A stretch of 40,597 nucleotides of DNA, taken from the UHGV virus genome UHGV-0183645; one strand, given 5' to 3'. Shown in pieces: positions 8,664-29,611 of this stretch. The position numbers and the translations under genes are program-made. Source of the DNA: a virus. Every line of letters starts with the position of its first letter. Position 1 is the stretch's first letter. Under the pieces are notes generated by a model that was not told where the DNA came from, did not search any database, and saw only the letters and a list, made by a program, of their open reading frames with translations.

Positions 8664-8699
8664 AGCGGGTACCGGATAAACCGGGCCCGCCCTATTTTT
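8664..8699. terminator. GC-rich hairpin (GCGGGTACCGG…CCGGGCCCGC) flanked by an A-run and a T-run
   Basis: Lies downstream of the ligase gene on the minus strand. Confidence 0.45.
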
Positions 8700-9639
8700 C
8701 AATGCATTCTGCTGCTGTTTTGTCAAACCTTAATCCTTTAAATACCGGCTGCCGCATCCCTCCAGATTTGGTATGATGCATAAACTTTACAATGCATACA
8801 AGGTCTGGAGAGAGCCATACGGCCCGGTCATTGCCGTGGCCTGCCGGATATGCGATAAATGGGGCAGATGGAAGCGTGGGATGTCTGGAGATGATATCAA
8901 ACGCCTGCCCACTGACACCCATGGTAACATGTCCTTTATAGATTAATGTATTACCCCGGTACTGTCCCAGGATAATGCTGGTCATGTGGTTACTTTTTAG
9001 GATATAGCCGCATATCACAAAATCATCATCTTGCATGACCTTCATTTTTATCCAATCAGAAGTGCTTTTATCTTGAATATAGATGCTATCTTTCTTTTTA
9101 GCCACAATTCCTTCTAACTTCCGCTTCAAAGCAAAATCAAAGAGGTTTGTCCCGCAACCTTCCGTATATCTGGATATGGCCATCCTTGGGCCATCCGAAA
9201 CGACCTTGGAAAGTAAATCCTTACGTTCTGTCAACGGCTGCAGCAATGTGTCTTTATAATCGCAATACAGAATGTCGAATGCCAGGAATGTAGCCGGGTT
9301 GCGTTTGGCGTCTAACTCAATTTTAAAACGGTCAGACATCAAGCTCCTTCTTTGGATTAACGAAAAATCGGGGCGCCCATCTTTCAGTATAAATAATTCC
9401 CCGTCCAGAATGCAGCGTTTTTTAACCTGCCTGCTGATTTCTTTCAGTTCGGGTACCTTATTCAGCATCCGCACGTTCCTTTTGTTTCTCAGTTCTGGCA
9501 GTTTTCCTGGTTCCAGATATGCCACACAGCGCTCTCCATCCCATTTCAGCTCATACATATACTTGGGGTCATCGAAAGGGGCCATTTCTTTGCCGATAAG
9601 CATAGGCTTGATATTCTTACTGTCAAAAAGGTCCATCAT
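8692..9639 (-). CDS. ATP-dependent DNA ligase (LigD-type ligase domain only)
   Basis: Motif I ELKWDGER. Motifs V/VI EGIVAKKKDS…DWIKMK. Start overlaps the ku stop (ATGA). Confidence 0.85.
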   Translation of the reverse strand: MMDLFDSKNIKPMLIGKEMAPFDDPKYMYELKWDGERCVAYLEPGKLPELRNKRNVRMLNKVPELKEISRQVKKRCILDGELFILKDGRPDFSLIQRRSLMSDRFKIELDAKRNPATFLAFDILYCDYKDTLLQPLTERKDLLSKVVSDGPRMAISRYTEGCGTNLFDFALKRKLEGIVAKKKDSIYIQDKSTSDWIKMKVMQDDDFVICGYILKSNHMTSIILGQYRGNTLIYKGHVTMGVSGQAFDIISRHPTLPSAPFIAYPAGHGNDRAVWLSPDLVCIVKFMHHTKSGGMRQPVFKGLRFDKTAAECIEK

Positions 9640-10445
9640 GCCGTTGCGGCCTTTTTCCGCGGCTTACGTTTGGTCGGTGGTTTATTGTCTGATACCTGTG
9701 CAAGACTACGTTGCAAAGCATCCATGATATCAATAACATTGTCCTGATGTTCTGCTGGCGCATTAACGATTTCCTGTCCGTTTATTTTAGCTTCTATAAT
9801 CTGTCTTAGCCTTATCTGGTATTCATCATGATACAATTCTGGCTCAAACTCTTTGTCCATGGAGTTAATAAGCATTTTTGCCATATCCAGTTCTTGCTGC
9901 TGCAATTCGGGGTGCGCCGGTTCCTTTGGGATTTCCTTCACCTCATCCGCGAAAAATAGGGTTTCCACAAGCATTCCCTTTGGCGTGGGAATTAGACACA
10001 GTAGCTTTTCGGATTGCCCCATGACTGTCTTTGCTATTGCCACCTTACCCTCATCAAACATGGCCTTACGGAGTAATTCATAGGCTTTGTCTCCGCCAGC
10101 CTCTACAACTGCATGATAAGTTTTGTCAAAATAAATAGGACGTATATTTTTAATGTCTGTAAAATGCAAAATCTGTATGGTTTTATCCTTCTCGGTTTTC
10201 GCCTTCTCAAAATCTGTGTCAGTCATCGTTACATACTGACCAGGTGCAAACTCAAAGCCTTTGACAATATCTTGAGTGCCTACTTCTTTCCCACAGTTGG
10301 CACAGACTTTTTTATACTTGACTCTTGACCCATCCTCCTTGCATAATTGGTTAAAATGGATGTCATTATCCTGCGTGGCCGTGTGTAGCGCCACCGGGAT
10401 GTGTACAAGGCCAAAACTGATTGCCCCTTTATGCGCTGCTGGCAT
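9636..10445 (-). CDS. ku: Ku protein (NHEJ DNA-end-binding)
   Basis: GAISFGLVHIPVALHTAT…VKYKKVCANCG…YHDEYQ are typical of bacterial Ku (YkoV/Mt-Ku). Internal ATG 10445 with an AGAGAGGTGA RBS is preferred over the track start. Confidence 0.9.
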   Translation of the reverse strand: MPAAHKGAISFGLVHIPVALHTATQDNDIHFNQLCKEDGSRVKYKKVCANCGKEVGTQDIVKGFEFAPGQYVTMTDTDFEKAKTEKDKTIQILHFTDIKNIRPIYFDKTYHAVVEAGGDKAYELLRKAMFDEGKVAIAKTVMGQSEKLLCLIPTPKGMLVETLFFADEVKEIPKEPAHPELQQQELDMAKMLINSMDKEFEPELYHDEYQIRLRQIIEAKINGQEIVNAPAEHQDNVIDIMDALQRSLAQVSDNKPPTKRKPRKKAATA

Positions 10446-10498
10446 ATAATCACCTCTCTCTTTTTTAGGTGTAGTATGTCCAGTTAAGTTAATATATA

Positions 10499-10768
10499 TC
10501 ACATAGCCATTGATGATGAGTTACTGACAGTCATAGTCCAAAATCCCAGTAGCGCATAATAATTTAGACCAATCTCATGGCGTTGATTTTTACATGATAC
10601 AGTACAACGGTATTGGGCATATTCGCGGTATTTGTCCGGTTTTTTCGTGCAGATATAGTTTTCGATTTTATAGCATGGCGCATCTTTATCGAGTGAGAGC
10701 TTAAGCCATAGGGGTTGAGTATCTCCGTCAGTATTAAAAGATGCGATAACATAGACACGTTTTGTCAT
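10499..10768 (-). CDS. hypothetical protein (89 aa), first gene of the ku-ligase operon
   Basis: ATG with an AAGGAGTGAG RBS. Immediately downstream of the LexA-box promoter. Confidence 0.5.
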   Translation of the reverse strand: MTKRVYVIASFNTDGDTQPLWLKLSLDKDAPCYKIENYICTKKPDKYREYAQYRCTVSCKNQRHEIGLNYYALLGFWTMTVSNSSSMAM

Positions 10769-10790
10769 TTACACTCACTCCTTTAGTTTC

Positions 10791-10820
10791 ATTATACGAA
10801 CATATGTTCTTTTTGTAAAG
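10791..10820 (-). promoter_or_regulatory. sigma70 promoter (-35 TTTACA / 17 nt / -10 TATAAT, minus strand) with LexA/Cheo box CGAACATATGTTCT (10797..10810) filling the spacer
   Basis: Seen directly. The box matches the Gram-positive SOS-box consensus CGAAC-N4-GTTCG at 13 of 14 positions. Confidence 0.6.
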
Positions 10821-11867: not shown

Positions 11868-12122
11868 AAACAGTAGTTAAATTGAGTTCGTTAGTAACAC
11901 ATTAATAACAAATCAATCATAGATTCCTTTATTTACTGGGTTTTTCGGCTGTGCTGGATTAAGAAAATCTTAAAATTGCGCCGAGAGTCAAAAACATTGA
12001 TAATTCGACATTTATCTTAGAACCCGCATAAAACAAGGAAATATTCAATATTGAGTAGTTATATTAAACAATGTGTTGTGTTGAGCAATTTCTTGCAGGT
12101 TAGTAACAAATTAATAACAGAT
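11868..12122. repeat. putative attP region: ~25-bp imperfect direct repeats GTTAGTAACA(c/a)ATTAATAACA(a/g)AT flanking a ~200-bp AT-rich segment at the 3' end of int
   Basis: Repeats seen at 11869..11893 and 12095..12119. Location is immediately downstream of the integrase gene. Confidence 0.35.
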
Positions 12123-13289
12123 TTTTATTTTGCAAATTTCGTTCATCAGGTCCTCGAGGTCTCTATGACCATATTTTTTATTTGTTATATCTTGTCCGAA
12201 GGAATGTCCAAGCATTCTTATTCGGTCATTCTCATTAACTTCATAGTGTTCGCACAATTTTGAAAATGTATGCCTGCAATCATGAGGAGTATGTTTGGTC
12301 ATTCCCAGTTCCTGTAACTTGGTATACATGCTAGCCCGGAACTTGTTTGCACTGTCCAATAAGTACCCATCTCTGTCTAATCGGCATTTCACTAGGGACA
12401 GTATACCGGGATGTATTGGGACAATACGATTTTTGCTTGTCCTTGTTTTTACACCACCCTGAAAATAGTTTTCATCAAGATTCACCGTTAGTGATTCATA
12501 GGCGACTATCCTAAATCCACTGTAGCACATAATCAGAATAAATTCTACTGTTGGGTCATCTTTATTATCCCATAGGATTTTTAAATCAGATTCTTCAAAA
12601 GGTACACCCTGCTCGTCATCATCTTCGATATTGATTTTTACTTTATCAGAATAATCTTTTTCACACAGACCCTGCATATCAGCATAAGCATACATTTGGT
12701 GATATAGATTTATAACATGCTCCAAACTGGCATATTTTAGTTCACAAGCATCTACGACAGCTTGCAAATCCTTGTGACGCAACTCCTTGAATATTTTATC
12801 ATGAAGAACGGAGCAATTCTTAAATGCTGCTTGGGAGGCATACATGGTACTCTTGGAGTATTTCTTTTTCTTTGTATTTCCGTCTTTGTCAGTATATTTC
12901 CAATCATAAAATTGTTCGTATACATCTTTGAAGGTCGGGTCAACATTGGGGGAGTTTGTTTCCTTACCAGACACAATATTACATACCTGGTTGTAATCAG
13001 CCAGGAGTTTCTTGACCAATTTGCCTAAATCCTTATCATCTTCACCGACCTCTGGTTTTGGCGGATACACACCCGGTACATATGTACCTGCCTTATATGC
13101 CGTTAAAATAGAAAAGCCATAATACCAGTCATCCACGTAGGCAAGTGCTGGTCTCGTGACAGCCTTACCATCTTCGTCAAATTCTTCTGCAGGTGGATAT
13201 ACGCCGAATGGATTGCTACGGTTGGCCCCCAAGAATCGTATGGAACCGTAACCATTGGGGAGCTTGGGATACTTCCTTCTTTTTGCCAT
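12111..13289 (-). CDS. int: tyrosine integrase
   Basis: C-terminal HDCRHTF and KKYGHRDLEDL supply the R-H-R-Y catalytic residues. N-terminal MAKRRKYPKLPNGYGSIRF is typical of Firmicutes phage integrases. AGGATGGTGA RBS. Confidence 0.9.
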   Translation of the reverse strand: MAKRRKYPKLPNGYGSIRFLGANRSNPFGVYPPAEEFDEDGKAVTRPALAYVDDWYYGFSILTAYKAGTYVPGVYPPKPEVGEDDKDLGKLVKKLLADYNQVCNIVSGKETNSPNVDPTFKDVYEQFYDWKYTDKDGNTKKKKYSKSTMYASQAAFKNCSVLHDKIFKELRHKDLQAVVDACELKYASLEHVINLYHQMYAYADMQGLCEKDYSDKVKINIEDDDEQGVPFEESDLKILWDNKDDPTVEFILIMCYSGFRIVAYESLTVNLDENYFQGGVKTRTSKNRIVPIHPGILSLVKCRLDRDGYLLDSANKFRASMYTKLQELGMTKHTPHDCRHTFSKLCEHYEVNENDRIRMLGHSFGQDITNKKYGHRDLEDLMNEICKIKICY

Positions 13290-13630: not shown

Positions 13631-14062
13631 TTATTGTAATTTTAAATTAAGTAACTCTATTGGATAACCCGTGCAATCGCAGAACTGTTCTTTTGTAAAC
13701 CCATCATACTCATGCAACAAATTGTCTGTAATAAGCAAACATGCAGCAAATAGATTGGCCTGCCGCTCTATCCTTGATGTAAGTAACAATGTATGTGCTC
13801 CCATAAAAGTACAGTTCTCCTTTGAATGGAACACAGCATGACCAAGTTCATGAGCAATTACAACGCGCAGGAAGGCATCATCATCAATACAAGAGTTTAC
13901 ATAAATGCAACGATTGTGTTTCATATATTTGTAAAATCCTGCAATTTTTCCAAGTGGGACAAAGAATACCTTTACTTTCAGACATTTAGCCAACTCTAAG
14001 GGGTCATTAGTTCCGAATTTTCTTGTTAGATATGTAATCTTCTTCCGTATTCTCTCGTTCAA
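13631..14062 (-). CDS. ImmA/IrrE-family metallopeptidase (anti-repressor protease)
   Basis: HEXXH motif IAHELGHAVFH. Downstream partner of the CI-like repressor. TTG start with a GAAGGTGA RBS. Confidence 0.8.
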   Translation of the reverse strand: MNERIRKKITYLTRKFGTNDPLELAKCLKVKVFFVPLGKIAGFYKYMKHNRCIYVNSCIDDDAFLRVVIAHELGHAVFHSKENCTFMGAHTLLLTSRIERQANLFAACLLITDNLLHEYDGFTKEQFCDCTGYPIELLNLKLQ

Positions 14063-14093: not shown

Positions 14094-14522
14094 CTATTTT
14101 TTTTTGTTCTTGTTCGGATTGTATTTTACCTTATTCTCTCGTTTTAATTGTGTTAAACCAAGCTCCAATGCCTTGCGGAGCAGTTCCAAGGATTCATCAT
14201 CAATTGGCTCTCCGTTATAATAAAGAGGGCCGTCAACATTATTTTCAATCTCTCCCATAATTCTGTCAAGGTCGCGGCCTATTTCACGCTCATCCTTAGG
14301 TGTAAGGCTGGTTTCTTTTATTATTTCGTCATTTTCACCTGTTAATAGATAAGATAGAGGGACTCCAAAATAGTCAGCTATTTTTTGAAGTTTTTCTTGC
14401 TTGAAGTTCCACCTACCTTGTTTCCATCCAGAAAATGAAGCTGTGGAAATTCCTGTTGCTTTGGCTACTTGGTAAGTAGTCACGCCGTATTTTTGTAACA
14501 ATTTTTCAAAATACTCGTACAT
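14094..14522 (-). CDS. CI-like phage repressor, XRE-family HTH
   Basis: N-terminal YQVAKATGISTASFSGWKQGR is an HTH. AAAGGAAAA RBS. Classic ImmR/ImmA pair. Confidence 0.8.
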   Translation of the reverse strand: MYEYFEKLLQKYGVTTYQVAKATGISTASFSGWKQGRWNFKQEKLQKIADYFGVPLSYLLTGENDEIIKETSLTPKDEREIGRDLDRIMGEIENNVDGPLYYNGEPIDDESLELLRKALELGLTQLKRENKVKYNPNKNKKK

Positions 14523-24824: not shown

Positions 24825-24997
24825 GACAAGCCGGGGGAAACCCCGGCAAATAAAAACGAAAGCTGAGAACATATGTACGAAACAATGAAACAGCGGTGGA
24901 CACCCGCCAAGATGACTCCACCGCTCCCATAGTAACTACCTGAGTATATTATACCCTACTCAGGTGGATAAATCAATCAATATGAGGAGGATATGAT

Positions 24998-26053
24998 ATG
25001 AGTACACAGGCAGTTAAAGCGGAAATTATAAACAATGTCATGGTAGCAATGTCGTATTACATCCAGCAACAGACCATCCTGTCAATGCTGGAACAGGTAA
25101 TGCAGCAGGAACTGGTCCGGGTTAACATGGAGGAGATTACCACACTGCCGGCAGAGCGGCAGGATAGCATTGCGGAGCGTAATAAGTACCTCATCCAGCT
25201 CTTTATGATTAAAAAGCGAAACCTGAAACGCGGGACGCTAGAGGGATACCTTGGAGCAATCAAGCGACTGCTAACAGTTATAAACACTAAGTCCCTGGAC
25301 CAGGTGGACGAGACAGATATAGAGTGGTATCTGGCCCAATATGAGCGGCGTGAAGGGCTGCACGGTAAGCTGGAGACTACTACATACAATAATGAGCGCC
25401 GGTTTCTGTCAGCCTTTTATACCTGGATGCGGAAGTCAAAGTTTATCGCTGACAACCCAGTAGAATCCACGGAGCCCAAGAAGGTATTCTTAAAACCCAT
25501 TGATTACTATTCCCCGGAGGAAATCATACGAATCAGAGATGCTTGTCAGAATGAGCGTGAAAGAGCCATCATTGAGGTATTCCGCAGTACCGGCGCCCGG
25601 GTGGGAGAGATTGCAGAGATTACCATGGAGCAGGTCAACCTGGAAACAGGAGATATCTGGATTCAGGGCGAGAAGGGCGGGAAATACCGGACTCTGTATT
25701 TGGATGACGATGCCAAGCACTACTATAAGCTCTATTTGGAGACGAGGACAGATAGCTCTCCATACATGTTTCCGAGTTCCAGGCGTCCATATGGGAGAAT
25801 GTGTACCTGTAGCTTCCGAAACATTATGAAAACCATAGGAAGGAGGGCCGGACTCACCTGCAGGGTATACCCGCACAAGATGAGAAAGACCCTGGGAATG
25901 AATCTTAAAAACAAAGGGGTGGATATTGGGACCATACAGGAGGTCCTGGGACATGCCAGCCCGGCAGTCACATCACAGTATTATGCACAGTCTACACCAC
26001 ATACCCTGCGGAGTGTAAGGGAGCGTGTGTCGTATAGGAGGATAGTAAATTGA
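24998..26053 (+). CDS. second tyrosine site-specific recombinase (XerC/XerD-like)
   Basis: RSTGARVGEI … HKMRKTLGMNL … LGHASPAVTSQYY supply the R…H-x-x-R…Y catalytic set. GAGGAGG RBS. Confidence 0.85.
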   Translation: MSTQAVKAEIINNVMVAMSYYIQQQTILSMLEQVMQQELVRVNMEEITTLPAERQDSIAERNKYLIQLFMIKKRNLKRGTLEGYLGAIKRLLTVINTKSLDQVDETDIEWYLAQYERREGLHGKLETTTYNNERRFLSAFYTWMRKSKFIADNPVESTEPKKVFLKPIDYYSPEEIIRIRDACQNERERAIIEVFRSTGARVGEIAEITMEQVNLETGDIWIQGEKGGKYRTLYLDDDAKHYYKLYLETRTDSSPYMFPSSRRPYGRMCTCSFRNIMKTIGRRAGLTCRVYPHKMRKTLGMNLKNKGVDIGTIQEVLGHASPAVTSQYYAQSTPHTLRSVRERVSYRRIVN

Positions 26054-26463
26054 AAATAACAAGGGATATGCTTAACAACTATAGACGCTTAAAACGGGAG
26101 ATACCGATACTTGAGGCAGAGCTGGTGGAAATGAAAAAGGGGGATAACGGATTTAATAATAGCACGATTTTTGATTATAGAGATGGATACCCACGGCCTC
26201 AGAGTGTAGTGGGATTTGACTGGCCGCTATATGAGCACAGAAAGAAAGTGCTTAATAGCAAAAAGGAACGGGTAAAAGCCGTGGAAAGGTGGATTAATTC
26301 CATAGAGGACGGGCAGACCAGATGTGTATTTCGGATGTTCTACATGGATGGCATGAGTTGGTTAAAGATAGCCGAGAAACTTAAGTGTGCAGGTGACCAT
26401 ATGGAGGACTACCCCAGAATATGTATAAGGGATTATTACCTTAAAAAAATGAATATTGCATAA
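26050..26463 (+). CDS. ArpU-family late transcriptional regulator (sigma-70 region 4-like)
   Basis: LNNYRRLKREIPILEAEL and the C-terminal FRMFYMDGMSWLKIAEKL HTH. Position just upstream of the packaging genes. Confidence 0.55.
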   Translation: MKITRDMLNNYRRLKREIPILEAELVEMKKGDNGFNNSTIFDYRDGYPRPQSVVGFDWPLYEHRKKVLNSKKERVKAVERWINSIEDGQTRCVFRMFYMDGMSWLKIAEKLKCAGDHMEDYPRICIRDYYLKKMNIA

Positions 26464-26600: not shown

Positions 26601-26674
26601 TGCGAGGTGGAGCAGTCTGGCAGCTCAATGGCCTCATAAGCCATAGGTCGGCGGTTCAAATCCGTCCCTCGCTA
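26601..26674 (+). tRNA. tRNA-Met (anticodon CAT)
   Basis: Manual cloverleaf fold: acceptor TGCGAGG/CCTCGCT, U8, D-stem GAGC/GCTC, anticodon stem ATGGC/GCCAT with loop CTCATAA, T-arm GGCGG-TTCAAAT-CCGTC, discriminator A. The 1:72 pair is mismatched. Confidence 0.7.
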
Positions 26675-26682
26675 CTATCAAA

Positions 26683-26715
26683 GGTACCTGTCAAATGATG
26701 GGTACTTTTTATTTA
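26683..26715 (+). terminator. hairpin GGTACC-N12-GGTACT followed by TTTTTATTT
   Basis: Lies downstream of the tRNA. Confidence 0.45.
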
Positions 26716-26831
26716 CCCAATTCCCGGCACCTGAAACTCAGGGTGTCCGGGGCCTCCTTGATGGAATATATTACCAGATGCACAGCCAGGAGGATGTCAT
26801 ATAATTATGACTAAGATAGGGGGACATCCGT

Positions 26832-27110
26832 ATGAAGATGACAGAACGTGAGACACAGATATACCAGTACATTGTTGATTACATGCAGGAGCATATGTAT
26901 GCACCGACCATACGGGAGATATGCAAAGCGGTTGGACTGAGCTCCACTGCATCTGTTGCGTTTTACATGGAGCACCTGGCAGGAAAGGGATTGATAGAGA
27001 TAGGACAAGATGCGCCCAGGAAAATACGACTGGTCGGGTACAGTATCGTGCCTAATAGTATGATAGAGGAACTGAATAGATTAAGAGCGGAAAGAGAGGT
27101 ATCTGAGTAA
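26832..27110 (+). CDS. LexA N-terminal DNA-binding-domain homologue lacking the S24 peptidase/autocleavage domain
   Basis: MTERETQIYQYIVDYMQEHMYAPTIREICKAVGLSSTASVAFYMEHLAGKGLIEI…PRKIRL aligns with the LexA winged-helix domain (…GYPPSVREI..AVGL.S.S.V..HL..LE.KG.I…RAIEL). The protein ends at 92 aa. Confidence 0.65.
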   Translation: MKMTERETQIYQYIVDYMQEHMYAPTIREICKAVGLSSTASVAFYMEHLAGKGLIEIGQDAPRKIRLVGYSIVPNSMIEELNRLRAEREVSE

Positions 27111-27149
27111 TCAGGTGCCTTTTTATATATCATGAAGGAGGACAAGAAC

Positions 27150-27371
27150 ATGGGAGAGAAATGGGAGAAGCCATTATTAGGAGTTAAGCCGGCGCGGCTT
27201 GTTATTACTGACAGGAATCTGGACCTTGCTAAAGCAATATGGGAACGTACCATGCAGGAGAAGATAACTGCTGCGGATTACCGGTTAATGGCCTTATGGG
27301 CATCGGAAATAACACTGAACTGCAACATGATGCTGGCATTGGATAAAACAGTAAAGATGATGGGAGAGTAG
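27150..27371 (+). CDS. hypothetical protein (73 aa)
   Basis: AAGGAGG RBS 7 nt before ATG 27150. Confidence 0.4.
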   Translation: MGEKWEKPLLGVKPARLVITDRNLDLAKAIWERTMQEKITAADYRLMALWASEITLNCNMMLALDKTVKMMGE

Positions 27372-27411
27372 TAGTCTGATTTAGTAAATTGGAAAACGAA
27401 ACGATTGAGAG

Positions 27412-28197
27412 GTGGTGGTCGTGCCAAGAGGGCGGAGTCCCAACCGGGATAAAGCATTTGAGATATATAAGCAGCACGGGGGTAAAATTACAAATCGTGA
27501 AATTGCAGCCCAGCTGGATGAGGACGAGAAGGTTATAGCTGTCTGGAAGAGCCGGGATAAGTGGAATGTTGTACAACAAAAGAAAAAGGAACGTTGTACA
27601 ACAAAATCCAGAGGTGGGCAGCCAGGAAACAAGAATGCTGTAGGGCATGGAGGGACTGGGCCGCCTGGGAATAAGAATGCGGTTAAGACGGGGGAGTTTG
27701 AATCCCTCTTTTTTGATACCCTTACACCAGATGAGCAGGAACTTATTGCAGTCCTGCCGAGGGATAAGGGAGAGCTGCTGCTGCAGGAGATACAACTCTT
27801 GACCGTGAGGGAGCGTAGGATGTTACAGCGCGTCAATGACCTCAAACAGGCAGCAGAGGAGCAGACTAAGAAGAAGGCCGAAGGCATGACAAAGGTAAAG
27901 TGGAAAGATGGTTTTGGCGCCAACGGTCCCATTGAGGTTACAGAGTATGAGGGTGTCTTGGGGCAGATACAGTCCGTTGAGGATGCCCTTACCCGTGTCC
28001 AGGCCAGGAAGCAGAAAGCGATTGATTCCCTGCATCGGTTTGGCTTTGATGATGCCCGCCTGGAAATCGAGTTGATGAAGCTTGATATCGCAACCCTCAA
28101 GGTGGATAATCAGGACCAGGAAACGGAAGATGATGGATTCCTGGCGGCTATGGATGCTGAGGCATCAAGTCTGTGGGGGGATGTGGATGGGGATTAA
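27412..28197 (+). CDS. terS: terminase small subunit
   Basis: Repeated GGQPGNKNAVGHG / GPPGNKNAVKTG motifs typical of Gram-positive phage TerS. Immediately upstream of terL. Confidence 0.6.
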   Translation: MVVVPRGRSPNRDKAFEIYKQHGGKITNREIAAQLDEDEKVIAVWKSRDKWNVVQQKKKERCTTKSRGGQPGNKNAVGHGGTGPPGNKNAVKTGEFESLFFDTLTPDEQELIAVLPRDKGELLLQEIQLLTVRERRMLQRVNDLKQAAEEQTKKKAEGMTKVKWKDGFGANGPIEVTEYEGVLGQIQSVEDALTRVQARKQKAIDSLHRFGFDDARLEIELMKLDIATLKVDNQDQETEDDGFLAAMDAEASSLWGDVDGD

Positions 28198-29611
28198 CGA
28201 GCGCATTGCCCAAATGAAGGAACGGATACAGCGGATTAAGGAAAAGCGGAATATCATAACAAAGCTGCAGGTATTTAAGTTCAAGCCGTTTTCAAAAAAG
28301 CAGAAGCAGATACTTACATGGTGGATGCCGAGCAGCCCGGTAAAGGACTATGACGGTATCATTGCGGATGGTGCTATCCGTTCTGGTAAGACGGTCTGTA
28401 TGTCCTTATCTTTTGTGTTCTGGGCCATGAAAACCTTCGCTGGCCAGAATTTCGCCATGTGTGGAAAGACCATTGGCTCCTTCCGGCGCAATGTGTTGTT
28501 CTGGCTTAAAATCATGCTACGGAGCCGCGGATATAAGGTAATGGACCACCGGGCGGACAATCTGGTGGAGATATCACGTAATGGTGTAACCAATAATTTT
28601 TACATATTCGGAGGTAAGGATGAACGCAGCCAGGACCTGATACAGGGTATCACTTTGGCGGGCCTGTTTTGTGATGAGGTGGCCTTGATGCCGGAATCAT
28701 TTGTTAATCAGGCAACCGGCCGATGCTCCGTTGATGGAAGCAAATACTGGTTTAACTGCAACCCGGACGGCCCTTATCATTGGTTCAAAACGAACTGGAT
28801 TGACCGTTCAGTGGGATATCTGGGGAAATCAAATGTAGAACGGCAGCGTAAGGAAGCAGCAGAGAAGAAGCAGGAGATATCCTTTAAAAAGCTGTTGTAT
28901 GTCCATTTTACCATGGATGATAACCTGAGCCTGTCCGAAGAGATTAAAGCCAGGTATAGGGAAAGTTACAGCGGTGTTTTCTACAAGCGCTATATCCTGG
29001 GGCTGTGGGCAATGGCAGAAGGCATTATCTACGATATGTTTGACGTGGATAAGCATGTTAAAAAGGTGATTGCCAACTTATACAATTCTGGGAGATATGT
29101 AAGCATTGACTACGGTACCCAGAATGCAACAGTATTTCTTCTGTGGAACCGCGGTGTGGATGGGAAATGGTATTGCATCAGGGAGTATTACTATTCTGGC
29201 CGGGATAATGCAAAGCAGAGAACGGATGCAGAATATGTCAGTGATTTCAAAGCATTCCTTGGAGGGATAAAAGTTAAGGGTGTCATTGTTGACCCATCGG
29301 CCGCTTCCTTCATTGTGGCATTAAGGCAGGCTGGTTATCCGGTGCTCAAAGCAAAAAATGATGTGGAGGACGGGATACGTCTGGTAGGTACATTGTTAAA
29401 TCAGGAAAAGATTGCATTCAGCGCCTCATGTGTTAATACCATAAAAGAATTTGCATCATACATATGGGATGCGAAGGCCGTTGACCGGGGAGCGGATGCA
29501 CCGATAAAGCAGCATGACCACGCTATGGATGCGGTACGCTATTTCTGTTATATGGTCCTTAATAACAATAGGGCAAAAATCAAGAATAAATCCAGCTACG
29601 GATTTTATTAA
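28187..29611 (+). CDS. terL: terminase large subunit
   Basis: Walker A-like ADGAIRSGKT. Walker B LFCDEVALM. C-terminal nuclease region. Overlaps the terS end. Confidence 0.85.
   Translation: MGINERIAQMKERIQRIKEKRNIITKLQVFKFKPFSKKQKQILTWWMPSSPVKDYDGIIADGAIRSGKTVCMSLSFVFWAMKTFAGQNFAMCGKTIGSFRRNVLFWLKIMLRSRGYKVMDHRADNLVEISRNGVTNNFYIFGGKDERSQDLIQGITLAGLFCDEVALMPESFVNQATGRCSVDGSKYWFNCNPDGPYHWFKTNWIDRSVGYLGKSNVERQRKEAAEKKQEISFKKLLYVHFTMDDNLSLSEEIKARYRESYSGVFYKRYILGLWAMAEGIIYDMFDVDKHVKKVIANLYNSGRYVSIDYGTQNATVFLLWNRGVDGKWYCIREYYYSGRDNAKQRTDAEYVSDFKAFLGGIKVKGVIVDPSAASFIVALRQAGYPVLKAKNDVEDGIRLVGTLLNQEKIAFSASCVNTIKEFASYIWDAKAVDRGADAPIKQHDHAMDAVRYFCYMVLNNNRAKIKNKSSYGFY

Follow-up and report, generated by a model that had tools for sequence, protein, structure and literature searches.

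The 40,597-nucleotide stretch of viral DNA UHGV-0183645 (the window, which below always means the whole stretch) holds most of the genome of a temperate tailed phage with a Lachnospiraceae host. On its plus strand at 26832..27110 lies an open reading frame (ORF), confirmed here, that starts with ATG and encodes a 92-residue protein; this is a genuine, conserved protein consisting of a LexA DNA-binding domain (DBD) only and lacking an autocleavage domain. About even confidence is placed in the reading that the gene specifies an intact, stand-alone LexA-derived DNA-binding protein, carried on an optional two-gene insert and acting as a RecA-insensitive, probably dimeric accessory transcription factor. 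On this reading a LexA-type winged helix (residues 2-68) is followed by a tail helix (75-91) that would replace the S24 dimerisation and cleavage domain, yielding a sequence-specific transcription factor immune to RecA-stimulated cleavage whose dimer would probably form through the C-terminal helix. With a linked 73-residue partner the gene would constitute a moron-like insert of ~620 bp between a leader hairpin and terS, and its product would be an accessory regulator connected to the SOS circuit instead of the centre of a regulon private to the phage. A host-type LexA operator appears to close the promoter in two sister lineages, so that the gene would probably come on there after DNA damage; in the window lineage that operator would since have been replaced.

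Residues 2-63 match profile positions 3-64 of 65 of PF01726 (LexA_DNA_bind) with E=1.7e-16 in Pfam, and every significant match in a PDB sequence search with the 92-residue protein is a LexA N-terminal domain. The AlphaFold model (predicted local distance difference test score, pLDDT, 87.5) contains three helices, a two-strand wing and an additional helix at 75-91, and its top Foldseek matches are LexA DNA-binding domains, including 3jso, 1jhh, 1lea and 3k2z; together the Pfam, PDB and fold matches delimit the winged helix to residues 2-68 (nucleotides ~26835-27035, plus strand). The NCBIfam LexA equivalog model (TIGR00498) is matched at positions 3-70 of 203 and scores 54.9 bits vs a cutoff of 110.95. 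Pfam finds no S24 peptidase domain in the protein, which stops at residue 92, and a tblastn search of the window with full-length Clostridial LexA finds the DBD alone (E=9e-14) and no S24 remnant in any frame, the best match of the C-terminal domain (E=3.4) lying elsewhere. The nearest full-length relative among the proteins sampled is a 196-residue "transcriptional repressor LexA [Clostridia bacterium]" with both LexA_DNA_bind and Peptidase_S24; Clostridia LexA (P0174/P0191), used here as a proxy for the LexA of an Enterocloster host, is 49% identical to the window protein across the DBD. Since the S24 domain, the cleavage site and the Ser/Lys dyad are all absent, the 92-residue protein should be insensitive to RecA-stimulated cleavage.

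The DBD-only architecture claimed in the original prediction, which was made from the letters of the DNA, is borne out by these hidden Markov model comparisons (Pfam, NCBIfam) and by 42 database homologues of 57-99% identity, named sources of which include Enterocloster citroniae, E. aldenensis, Clostridium porci and Clostridium sp. FS41; PF01726 is the sole domain in all of them and most are 90-93 residues long. The truncated architecture taken by itself could also come from a lexA gene cut short by a frameshift or by assembly, or from a decaying pseudogene, but this explanation retains practically no probability: the homologues share a conserved stop region and come from many independent assemblies and isolates, their C-terminal tail is invariant, and the sequence downstream of the stop differs among them. 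Assembly error or frameshift is ruled out by the 42 DBD-only homologues, the invariant tail and the absence of an S24 remnant, and no peptidase domain can be recovered by read-through or frameshift in the window.

The prediction had also aligned the product with LexA over its entire length, and this is incorrect for residues ~69-92. Alignment of the homologues and the AlphaFold model define here a family-specific tail with a helix (residues 69-92, nucleotides ~27036-27107, plus strand), whose signature RLVGYSIVPNSMIEELNRLR is nearly invariant in the family and is located exactly where LexA carries its linker and cleavage loop. We infer that the amphipathic tail helix (75-91) supplies dimerisation in place of the S24 domain. 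Related stand-alone and tandem LexA-DBD proteins retain a GY..VP motif; many relatives (P0044 and others) are tandem LexA-type duplications of 140-230 residues with two matched stretches and GY..VP after each copy. These tandem forms suggest that two domains may be needed for function and that fusion may be an alternative to dimerisation.

Helix 3 of E. coli LexA contacts DNA through Ser39, Asn41, Ala42, Glu44 and Glu45 (PMC3091678). The five aligned residues are S,S,S,H,Q in Clostridial LexA and S,A,S,A,F in the window protein, identical at 2/5 and different at 3/5; of the family members, P0029 has S,S,S,A,F, P0027 has S,S,A,S,Y and P0017 has S,S,S,A,T, while the truncated LexA homologue gp6 of phage GIL01 has S,K,T,H,R and B. 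subtilis LexA has S,S,T,H,G. The helix-3 start KSTSSV of Clostridial LexA is common to most family members, its first turn STSSV being STASV in the window protein. The His-Gln that follows the first turn is lost family-wide, with the His replaced consistently by Ala or Ser and the next residue variable. Because the first helix turn is kept but the His-Gln is lost, the operator of the window protein is expected to be a LexA-box-related dyad of altered or relaxed specificity. In other respects too the protein departs from Clostridial LexA, i.e. it lacks the linker, the Ala-Gly cleavage site, the Ser/Lys dyad and the S24 dimerisation domain, carries a new C-terminal helix and scores far under the equivalog cutoff.

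That the gene is an accessory one follows from alignment with a LexA-less relative (L147), whose terS and terL are 62% and 70% identical to those of the window: 26714-26759 and 27383 onward match, and the ~620 bp between them (26760..27382, plus strand) are a clean insertion absent from L147. The insert is bordered by CCTCCTT on one side and the conserved terS ribosome-binding region on the other, and contains in order a 5' non-coding region, the LexA-DBD gene, a hairpin over its stop codon and the 73-residue partner ORF. The first core packaging gene, terS for the small terminase subunit (27412..28197, plus strand; PF10668 5.4e-12, phrog_1889 7e-74), and terL (28082..29611), then portal and further late genes, lie downstream, and the predicted position of the gene upstream of the packaging genes is thus correct. 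The LexA-DBD gene is present in 16/64 leader-bearing IMG/VR contigs with enough downstream sequence and is missing from 48/64, and at this leader-terS junction some other phages have small ORFs that are unrelated to it. In seven close loci it stands directly upstream of terS in 7/7, with the 73-residue ORF between the two in four, and the content farther upstream varies.

Morons are accessory genes of temperate phages that have their own signals and are inserted between conserved late genes. The insert is like them in being optional, in sitting at a fixed junction of conserved elements and in having a terminator-like hairpin at the end, and is unlike them in that a clear promoter is found in the L005 and L029 lineages only and the base composition is ordinary. 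A putative weak cassette promoter in the window (26771..26805, plus strand) comprises TTACCA at 26771-26776, GATGCA at 26777-26782, 17 nucleotides and TATAAT at 26800-26805, a layout that is shared by the window, L001, L025 and L030 lineages. The terminator-like hairpin over the stop codon (27093..27124, plus strand; core GGTATCTGA-gtaa-TCAGGTGCC, then TTTTT; -18.3 kcal/mol by RNAfold) was not flagged by a simple terminator scan; it is kept with compensatory and G.U changes across lineages despite differing C-terminal residues and stop position, and is seen after LexA-DBD genes only, while the sequence beyond the stop codon varies between lineages. This hairpin and the leader hairpin (26724-26750) share the core CAYCTGA-N3-4-TCAGG(G)TG, which occurs on the plus strand of the window in these two places only; chance, shared recognition and a trace left by cassette insertion are all conceivable causes. 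Integron-like cassette boundaries were considered and rejected: the hairpin over the stop codon has the core CTGA-N3-4-TCAGG in common with the leader hairpin, but it is found only after LexA-DBD genes and is missing after other ORFs inserted at the hotspot.

The partner ORF is assigned to 27150..27371 (plus strand; 73 residues), with ATG at 27150 after a GGAGG ribosome-binding site; the mechanical ORF begins at 27132, and partner homologues of 72-73 residues support the ATG start. Its predicted structure is a two-helix hairpin (AlphaFold, pLDDT 85), and it has no match in Pfam, PHROG, NCBIfam or PADLOC; searches gave neither an informative fold match nor any similarity to gp7 of GIL01. Among ~190 loci the partner occurs with the LexA-DBD gene in 46 and alone in 0. 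Such strict linkage, in a small self-contained insert at a hotspot for unrelated small ORFs, is what would be seen if the 92-residue protein were a cassette-internal, Aca-like regulator and the partner were the true effector, with e.g. an anti-defence, exclusion or LexA/RecA-binding function. The gene order also recalls ORF6-ORF7 of GIL01, where a LexA-like gene is followed by that of a small LexA-binding protein (PMC4551915). We nevertheless consider this arrangement distinctly unlikely, in that the LexA-DBD gene is found without the partner in L005-L007, L024/L125 and L010, a terminator-like hairpin lies between the two genes, the cassette promoter holds no conserved operator, and the partner resembles neither gp7, nor defence or anti-defence models, nor solved folds.

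The insertion point is marked by the packaging-operon leader hairpin (26724..26759, plus strand), which lies outside the cassette, ~100 nucleotides upstream of the LexA-DBD gene, and has the sequence CCGGCACCTGAAACTCAGGGTGTCCGG, then GGCCTCCTT. It is a GC-rich hairpin of the form CCGGYRYCTGAAAYNYAGGSNNNCCGG with the loop TGAAACTNAG, then CCTCCTT, and the element thus ends with an anti-Shine-Dalgarno-like CCUCCUU. The hairpin is conserved, its pattern recurring in at least 73 IMG/VR contigs, and one pair covaries between A-T and G-C with a G.T intermediate. Packaging genes follow the leader in LexA-less contigs, and in many of these phages terS starts 55-77 nucleotides downstream, leaving no room for a promoter between. 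In the window another terminator-like hairpin (26683-26710) directly precedes the leader hairpin, an order that is seen in nearly all lineages. Late transcription would therefore appear to read through from upstream, as judged from this layout, with the leader acting in antitermination and/or control of terS translation; it is a candidate late-operon leader RNA.

Upstream of the leader, at 26050..26463 (plus strand), is the gene of a DUF1492/sigma-70 region-4-like protein (Pfam DUF1492 E=3e-4, at 21.3 bits against a cutoff of 21.5; phrog_36 "transcriptional regulator" 3.9e-16), which we place in the late-activator superfamily and take to be the presumptive late-gene activator. A tRNA-Met gene (anticodon CAT, 26601-26675) lies between it and the leader and is absent from the L001-L004 relatives.

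This setting bears on whether the LexA-derived protein could itself be the late-gene activator. The sole characterised truncated phage LexA homologue, the 66-residue gp6 of the Bacillus thuringiensis tectivirus GIL01, activates the late promoter P3 by binding GaCACAnnTGTGaC, which overlaps the -35 element, and its Lys38 is essential (Fornelos et al. 2018; PMC6182141). By analogy, the window protein could bind a private palindromic operator over a late promoter and turn on the packaging and late operon: it is 30% identical to gp6 (E=5e-9), and in all close relatives its gene comes first in the packaging operon. Both proteins are phage-encoded truncated LexA homologues with the winged-helix DBD as their only known domain, without S24 and so presumably outside RecA control, encoded at the boundary of early and late genes with a small ORF next. 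An activator role of this type is very unlikely, however, since 48/64 phages with the same leader do without the gene, a dedicated DUF1492-type activator is encoded just upstream, there is no promoter space between the gene and the next ORF, and an operon cannot be switched on initially by the product of its own first gene. No match to the gp6 operator with two or fewer mismatches is found in the window, and at the position of Lys38 the window protein has Ala40 and most of its family a Ser. The two proteins also differ in that gp6 ends at the wing, while the window protein has 24 more conserved residues including a helix, and in that gp6 is encoded by a core early tectivirus gene and is the sole late activator of its phage, while the insert with the window gene is optional and lies in a tailed phage that has a DUF1492-type activator. 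The window protein is neither a gp6 orthologue nor a LexA; gp6 serves as a precedent that a truncated LexA homologue can be a functional phage transcription factor (PMC6182141).

The original prediction proposed instead that the protein occupies SOS boxes of its own phage. The Firmicutes SOS box (Cheo box) is GAAC-N4-GTTC, with the consensus form CGAACATATGTTCG. A LexA box had been predicted at the promoter of the Ku-ligase operon, and it is confirmed as a perfect GAAC-N4-GTTC, the only one in the window: GAACATATGTTC occupies 10798-10809, between the -35 and -10 elements of the promoter TTTACA-N17-TATAAT (10791..10819, minus strand), upstream of an 88-residue ORF, Ku and an ATP-dependent ligase. 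The box is kept at the same promoter in L033, L034, L035 and L041, contigs from which the LexA-DBD family is absent, and in IMG/VR 10 contigs bear Ku vs 22 that bear the LexA-DBD gene, with an overlap of 0. Because the box is conserved in Ku contigs without the LexA-DBD family, host LexA suffices to account for it, and it is read most simply as a host-LexA operator. The distant homologue P0041 (115 residues) does adjoin Ku, ligase and a Y-family polymerase, and that Ku promoter (L010) is without a box.

The second, weaker box-like sequence of the prediction, AGAACATATGTACG at 24866..24879 (plus strand), is indeed present upstream of the leader of an XerC/D-like recombinase gene and is conserved as AGAAC-RTAY-GTRC-G (the L097/L107 version is GAACATACATTC). 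Its presence does not depend on the LexA-DBD gene; it is found in at least eight loci without the gene (L054, L056-L061, L064) and is absent from two gene-bearing loci (L045, L048). It belongs to the recombinase module independently of the LexA-DBD gene, and as a cognate operator it was rejected, since it dissociates from the gene both ways. In all, GAAC-N4-GTTC sites with at most one mismatch number 8 in the window vs 10.4 expected by chance. The 7-nucleotide inverted repeat GGATGTC/GACATCC that was said to bracket the -10 and ribosome-binding region of the gene does exist (26792-26798 and 26823-26829) and is judged non-functional: 6-9% of comparable 72-nucleotide stretches hold such a repeat by chance, and the right arm is lost in L011-L014, where the protein is 98-99% identical. 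It was discarded as an operator because of this chance-level frequency and the lack of conservation of the right arm.

The phage-private SOS sub-regulon built on the two boxes is thus not supported, as both recur in phages without the gene and the near-box is missing in two phages with it. More generally, a non-cleavable SOS repressor acting on Cheo boxes (at the Ku promoter, 10798-10809, and at the near-box, 24866), either as the head of such a sub-regulon or as a competitor of host LexA, is considered unlikely. In its favor are the homology to LexA DBDs (49% identity to that of Clostridial LexA), the first helix turn S-T-S-S-V retained by most family members, the perfect Cheo box in the Ku-ligase promoter spacer and the neighborhood of P0041; a portable cassette is also easier to explain with a target that is present in all hosts, e.g. 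SOS boxes, and phage manipulation of LexA-controlled genes has a precedent in GIL01 gp7 (PMC9700832). Besides the distribution of the boxes and the boxless L010 promoter, it is opposed by the replacement of His-Gln with Ala and a variable residue, with agreement at only 2/5 contact positions, by the lack of the canonical dimerisation domain and by the consideration that a constitutive box-binder would silence the phage's own Ku-ligase operon permanently. A related proposal, which is likewise doubtful, is that of a RecA-proof surrogate LexA that re-closes GAAC-N4-GTTC-type operators after damage has destroyed host LexA; it would act on the SOS regulon of the host, on the Ku-ligase operon of the phage itself and on rival prophages under LexA control. 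The gene itself would in some lineages be released from its LexA operator upon loss of host LexA, the product would serve as an SOS brake during lytic growth, and the 73-residue partner would be a co-factor, as gp7 is for LexA in GIL01.

The link of the accessory regulator to the SOS circuit rests on the promoters of sister lineages. In L005-L007 and L029 the promoter of the gene, GTGACA-N17-TATAAT, is close to consensus, and its spacer includes GCAAAC-N4-GTTC (the L005-type promoter is GTGACAAATGCAAACATTTGTTCTATAAT), of which the half-sites are retained and the N4 differs. Read on the other strand these operators are AGAAC-AAAT-GTTTGC-AT and AGAAC-AGTT-GTTTGC-TT, and the genuine Clostridial lexA operator, CGAAC-AATT-GTTTGC-AT, immediately upstream of TATAAT, has the same GAAC-N4-GTTTGC form. 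Host LexA is therefore the probable repressor of the gene in L005-L007 and L029, and DNA damage its probable inducer, with autoregulation as the alternative; the half-sites of L005 and L029 are identical but the contact residues of their proteins differ, which favors host LexA over the phage protein as the binder. As the sister-lineage operator shares the form of the cellular one, the gene may derive from the 5' part of a cellular lexA that was captured along with its promoter. No LexA box lies in the gene's own promoter in the lineages of the window, L001, L025 and L030. In L026, a Clostridium sp. FS41-type prophage, two perfect GAAC-N4-GTTC boxes (positions 509 and 748) occur ~2.1-2.4 kb upstream of the LexA-DBD gene.

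Several observations weigh against an accessory transcription factor on an acquired insert. No operator for the 92-residue protein was found in this analysis, and in the window lineage no conserved dyad is present in the gene's own promoter; a consensus promoter scan made no call before the window gene, where a perfect TATAAT is paired with a poor -35. The G+C content of the insert, 0.43-0.47 vs 0.41-0.53 in the flanks, is not atypical. The recognition helix is unrecognisable in the divergent homologue P0041 (115 residues), and the contact residues vary even among close family members, which could mean either that specificity is diversifying or that constraint has been relaxed.

Phages commonly encode stand-alone LexA domains, and the window protein belongs to the known kind of phage-encoded truncated LexA homologues. 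It matches PHROGs 3502, 24920 and 362 ("transcriptional repressor"), and 13,487 representative clusters match a profile of the family; among the best 150 of them ~70 have 110 residues or fewer, and some others are tandem duplications. GenBank phages are already annotated with names such as "LexA DNA-binding domain protein"; a literature search yielded nothing relevant on PF01726 or on LexA-like proteins near terminase genes. The protein so named in Bacillus phage 11143 (82 residues), Mycobacterium phage Cosmo gp13, PHROG 362 and PHROG 3502 have the same single-domain architecture, and unlike the window protein they are without the RLVGYSIVPNSMIEELNRLR tail and without the 73-residue partner. 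The recognition helix of the Bacillus phage 11143 protein is ASSSTVHGHL, which presumably matches that of B. subtilis LexA, and this protein would be a better candidate than the window protein for a true SOS-box mimic. In that phage (L008) a serine recombinase is encoded directly upstream of the LexA-DBD gene.

Elsewhere in the window a lysogeny module comprises an integrase (12111-13289), an ImmA-like M78 protease (13631-14062) and a CI/ImmR-like helix-turn-helix repressor (14094-14522), and replication genes are also present. The main lysogeny switch is this separate ImmR/ImmA pair, and with this module already in place the role of main lysogeny repressor was rejected for the LexA-derived protein. 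The prophage also carries at 8692-10819 (minus strand) the operon of the 88-residue ORF, Ku and ATP-dependent DNA ligase, whose promoter and gene content suggest an end-joining module, inducible by SOS, in a gut phage.

The second tyrosine recombinase, the XerC/D-like protein of 351 residues (24998-26053), overlaps the start of the DUF1492/sigma-r4-like gene; its relatives were found in 167 IMG/VR stretches, with a downstream DUF1492 homologue detected in only some of 80 loci. Its leader, just downstream of the near-box, can form two hairpins (24891-24965), AGCGGTGGA-N16-TCCACCGCT and then CCTGAGTA-N10-TACTCAGG. This element is conserved over ~45 distinct sequences out of the 80 loci, down to 57% recombinase identity, and on these covariation is strong: 12/17 pairs show two-sided changes, and 79 compensatory cells are observed vs 28.9 +/- 4.0 in shuffles, 0/500 of which reach 79. 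The covariation score is 0.307 vs 0.06-0.12 in slid controls. RNAalifold returned no structure on the gappy alignment of this leader, and explicit pair counting was used. Neither this element nor the hairpin that heads the packaging operon matches a family in Rfam 15, and the two hairpins before the recombinase gene are candidates for a new cis-regulatory RNA or a site of recombination.

The LexA-DBD gene is of an ordinary kind, and a private phage regulon is not supported. Phage stand-alone LexA DBDs nevertheless make up thousands of clusters and several PHROG families, of which GIL01 gp6 alone has been characterised, and the family described here offers a compact test case in gut Lachnospiraceae: a LexA-derived protein with no cleavage domain, a new C-terminal helix, a linked small partner and, in some lineages, a LexA operator. 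If the protein does bind SOS boxes, temperate phages could re-impose SOS repression independently of RecA, which would bear on how prophages compete and on mutagenesis after DNA damage in the gut; with another target, it would be a second case of re-purposing of the LexA domain.

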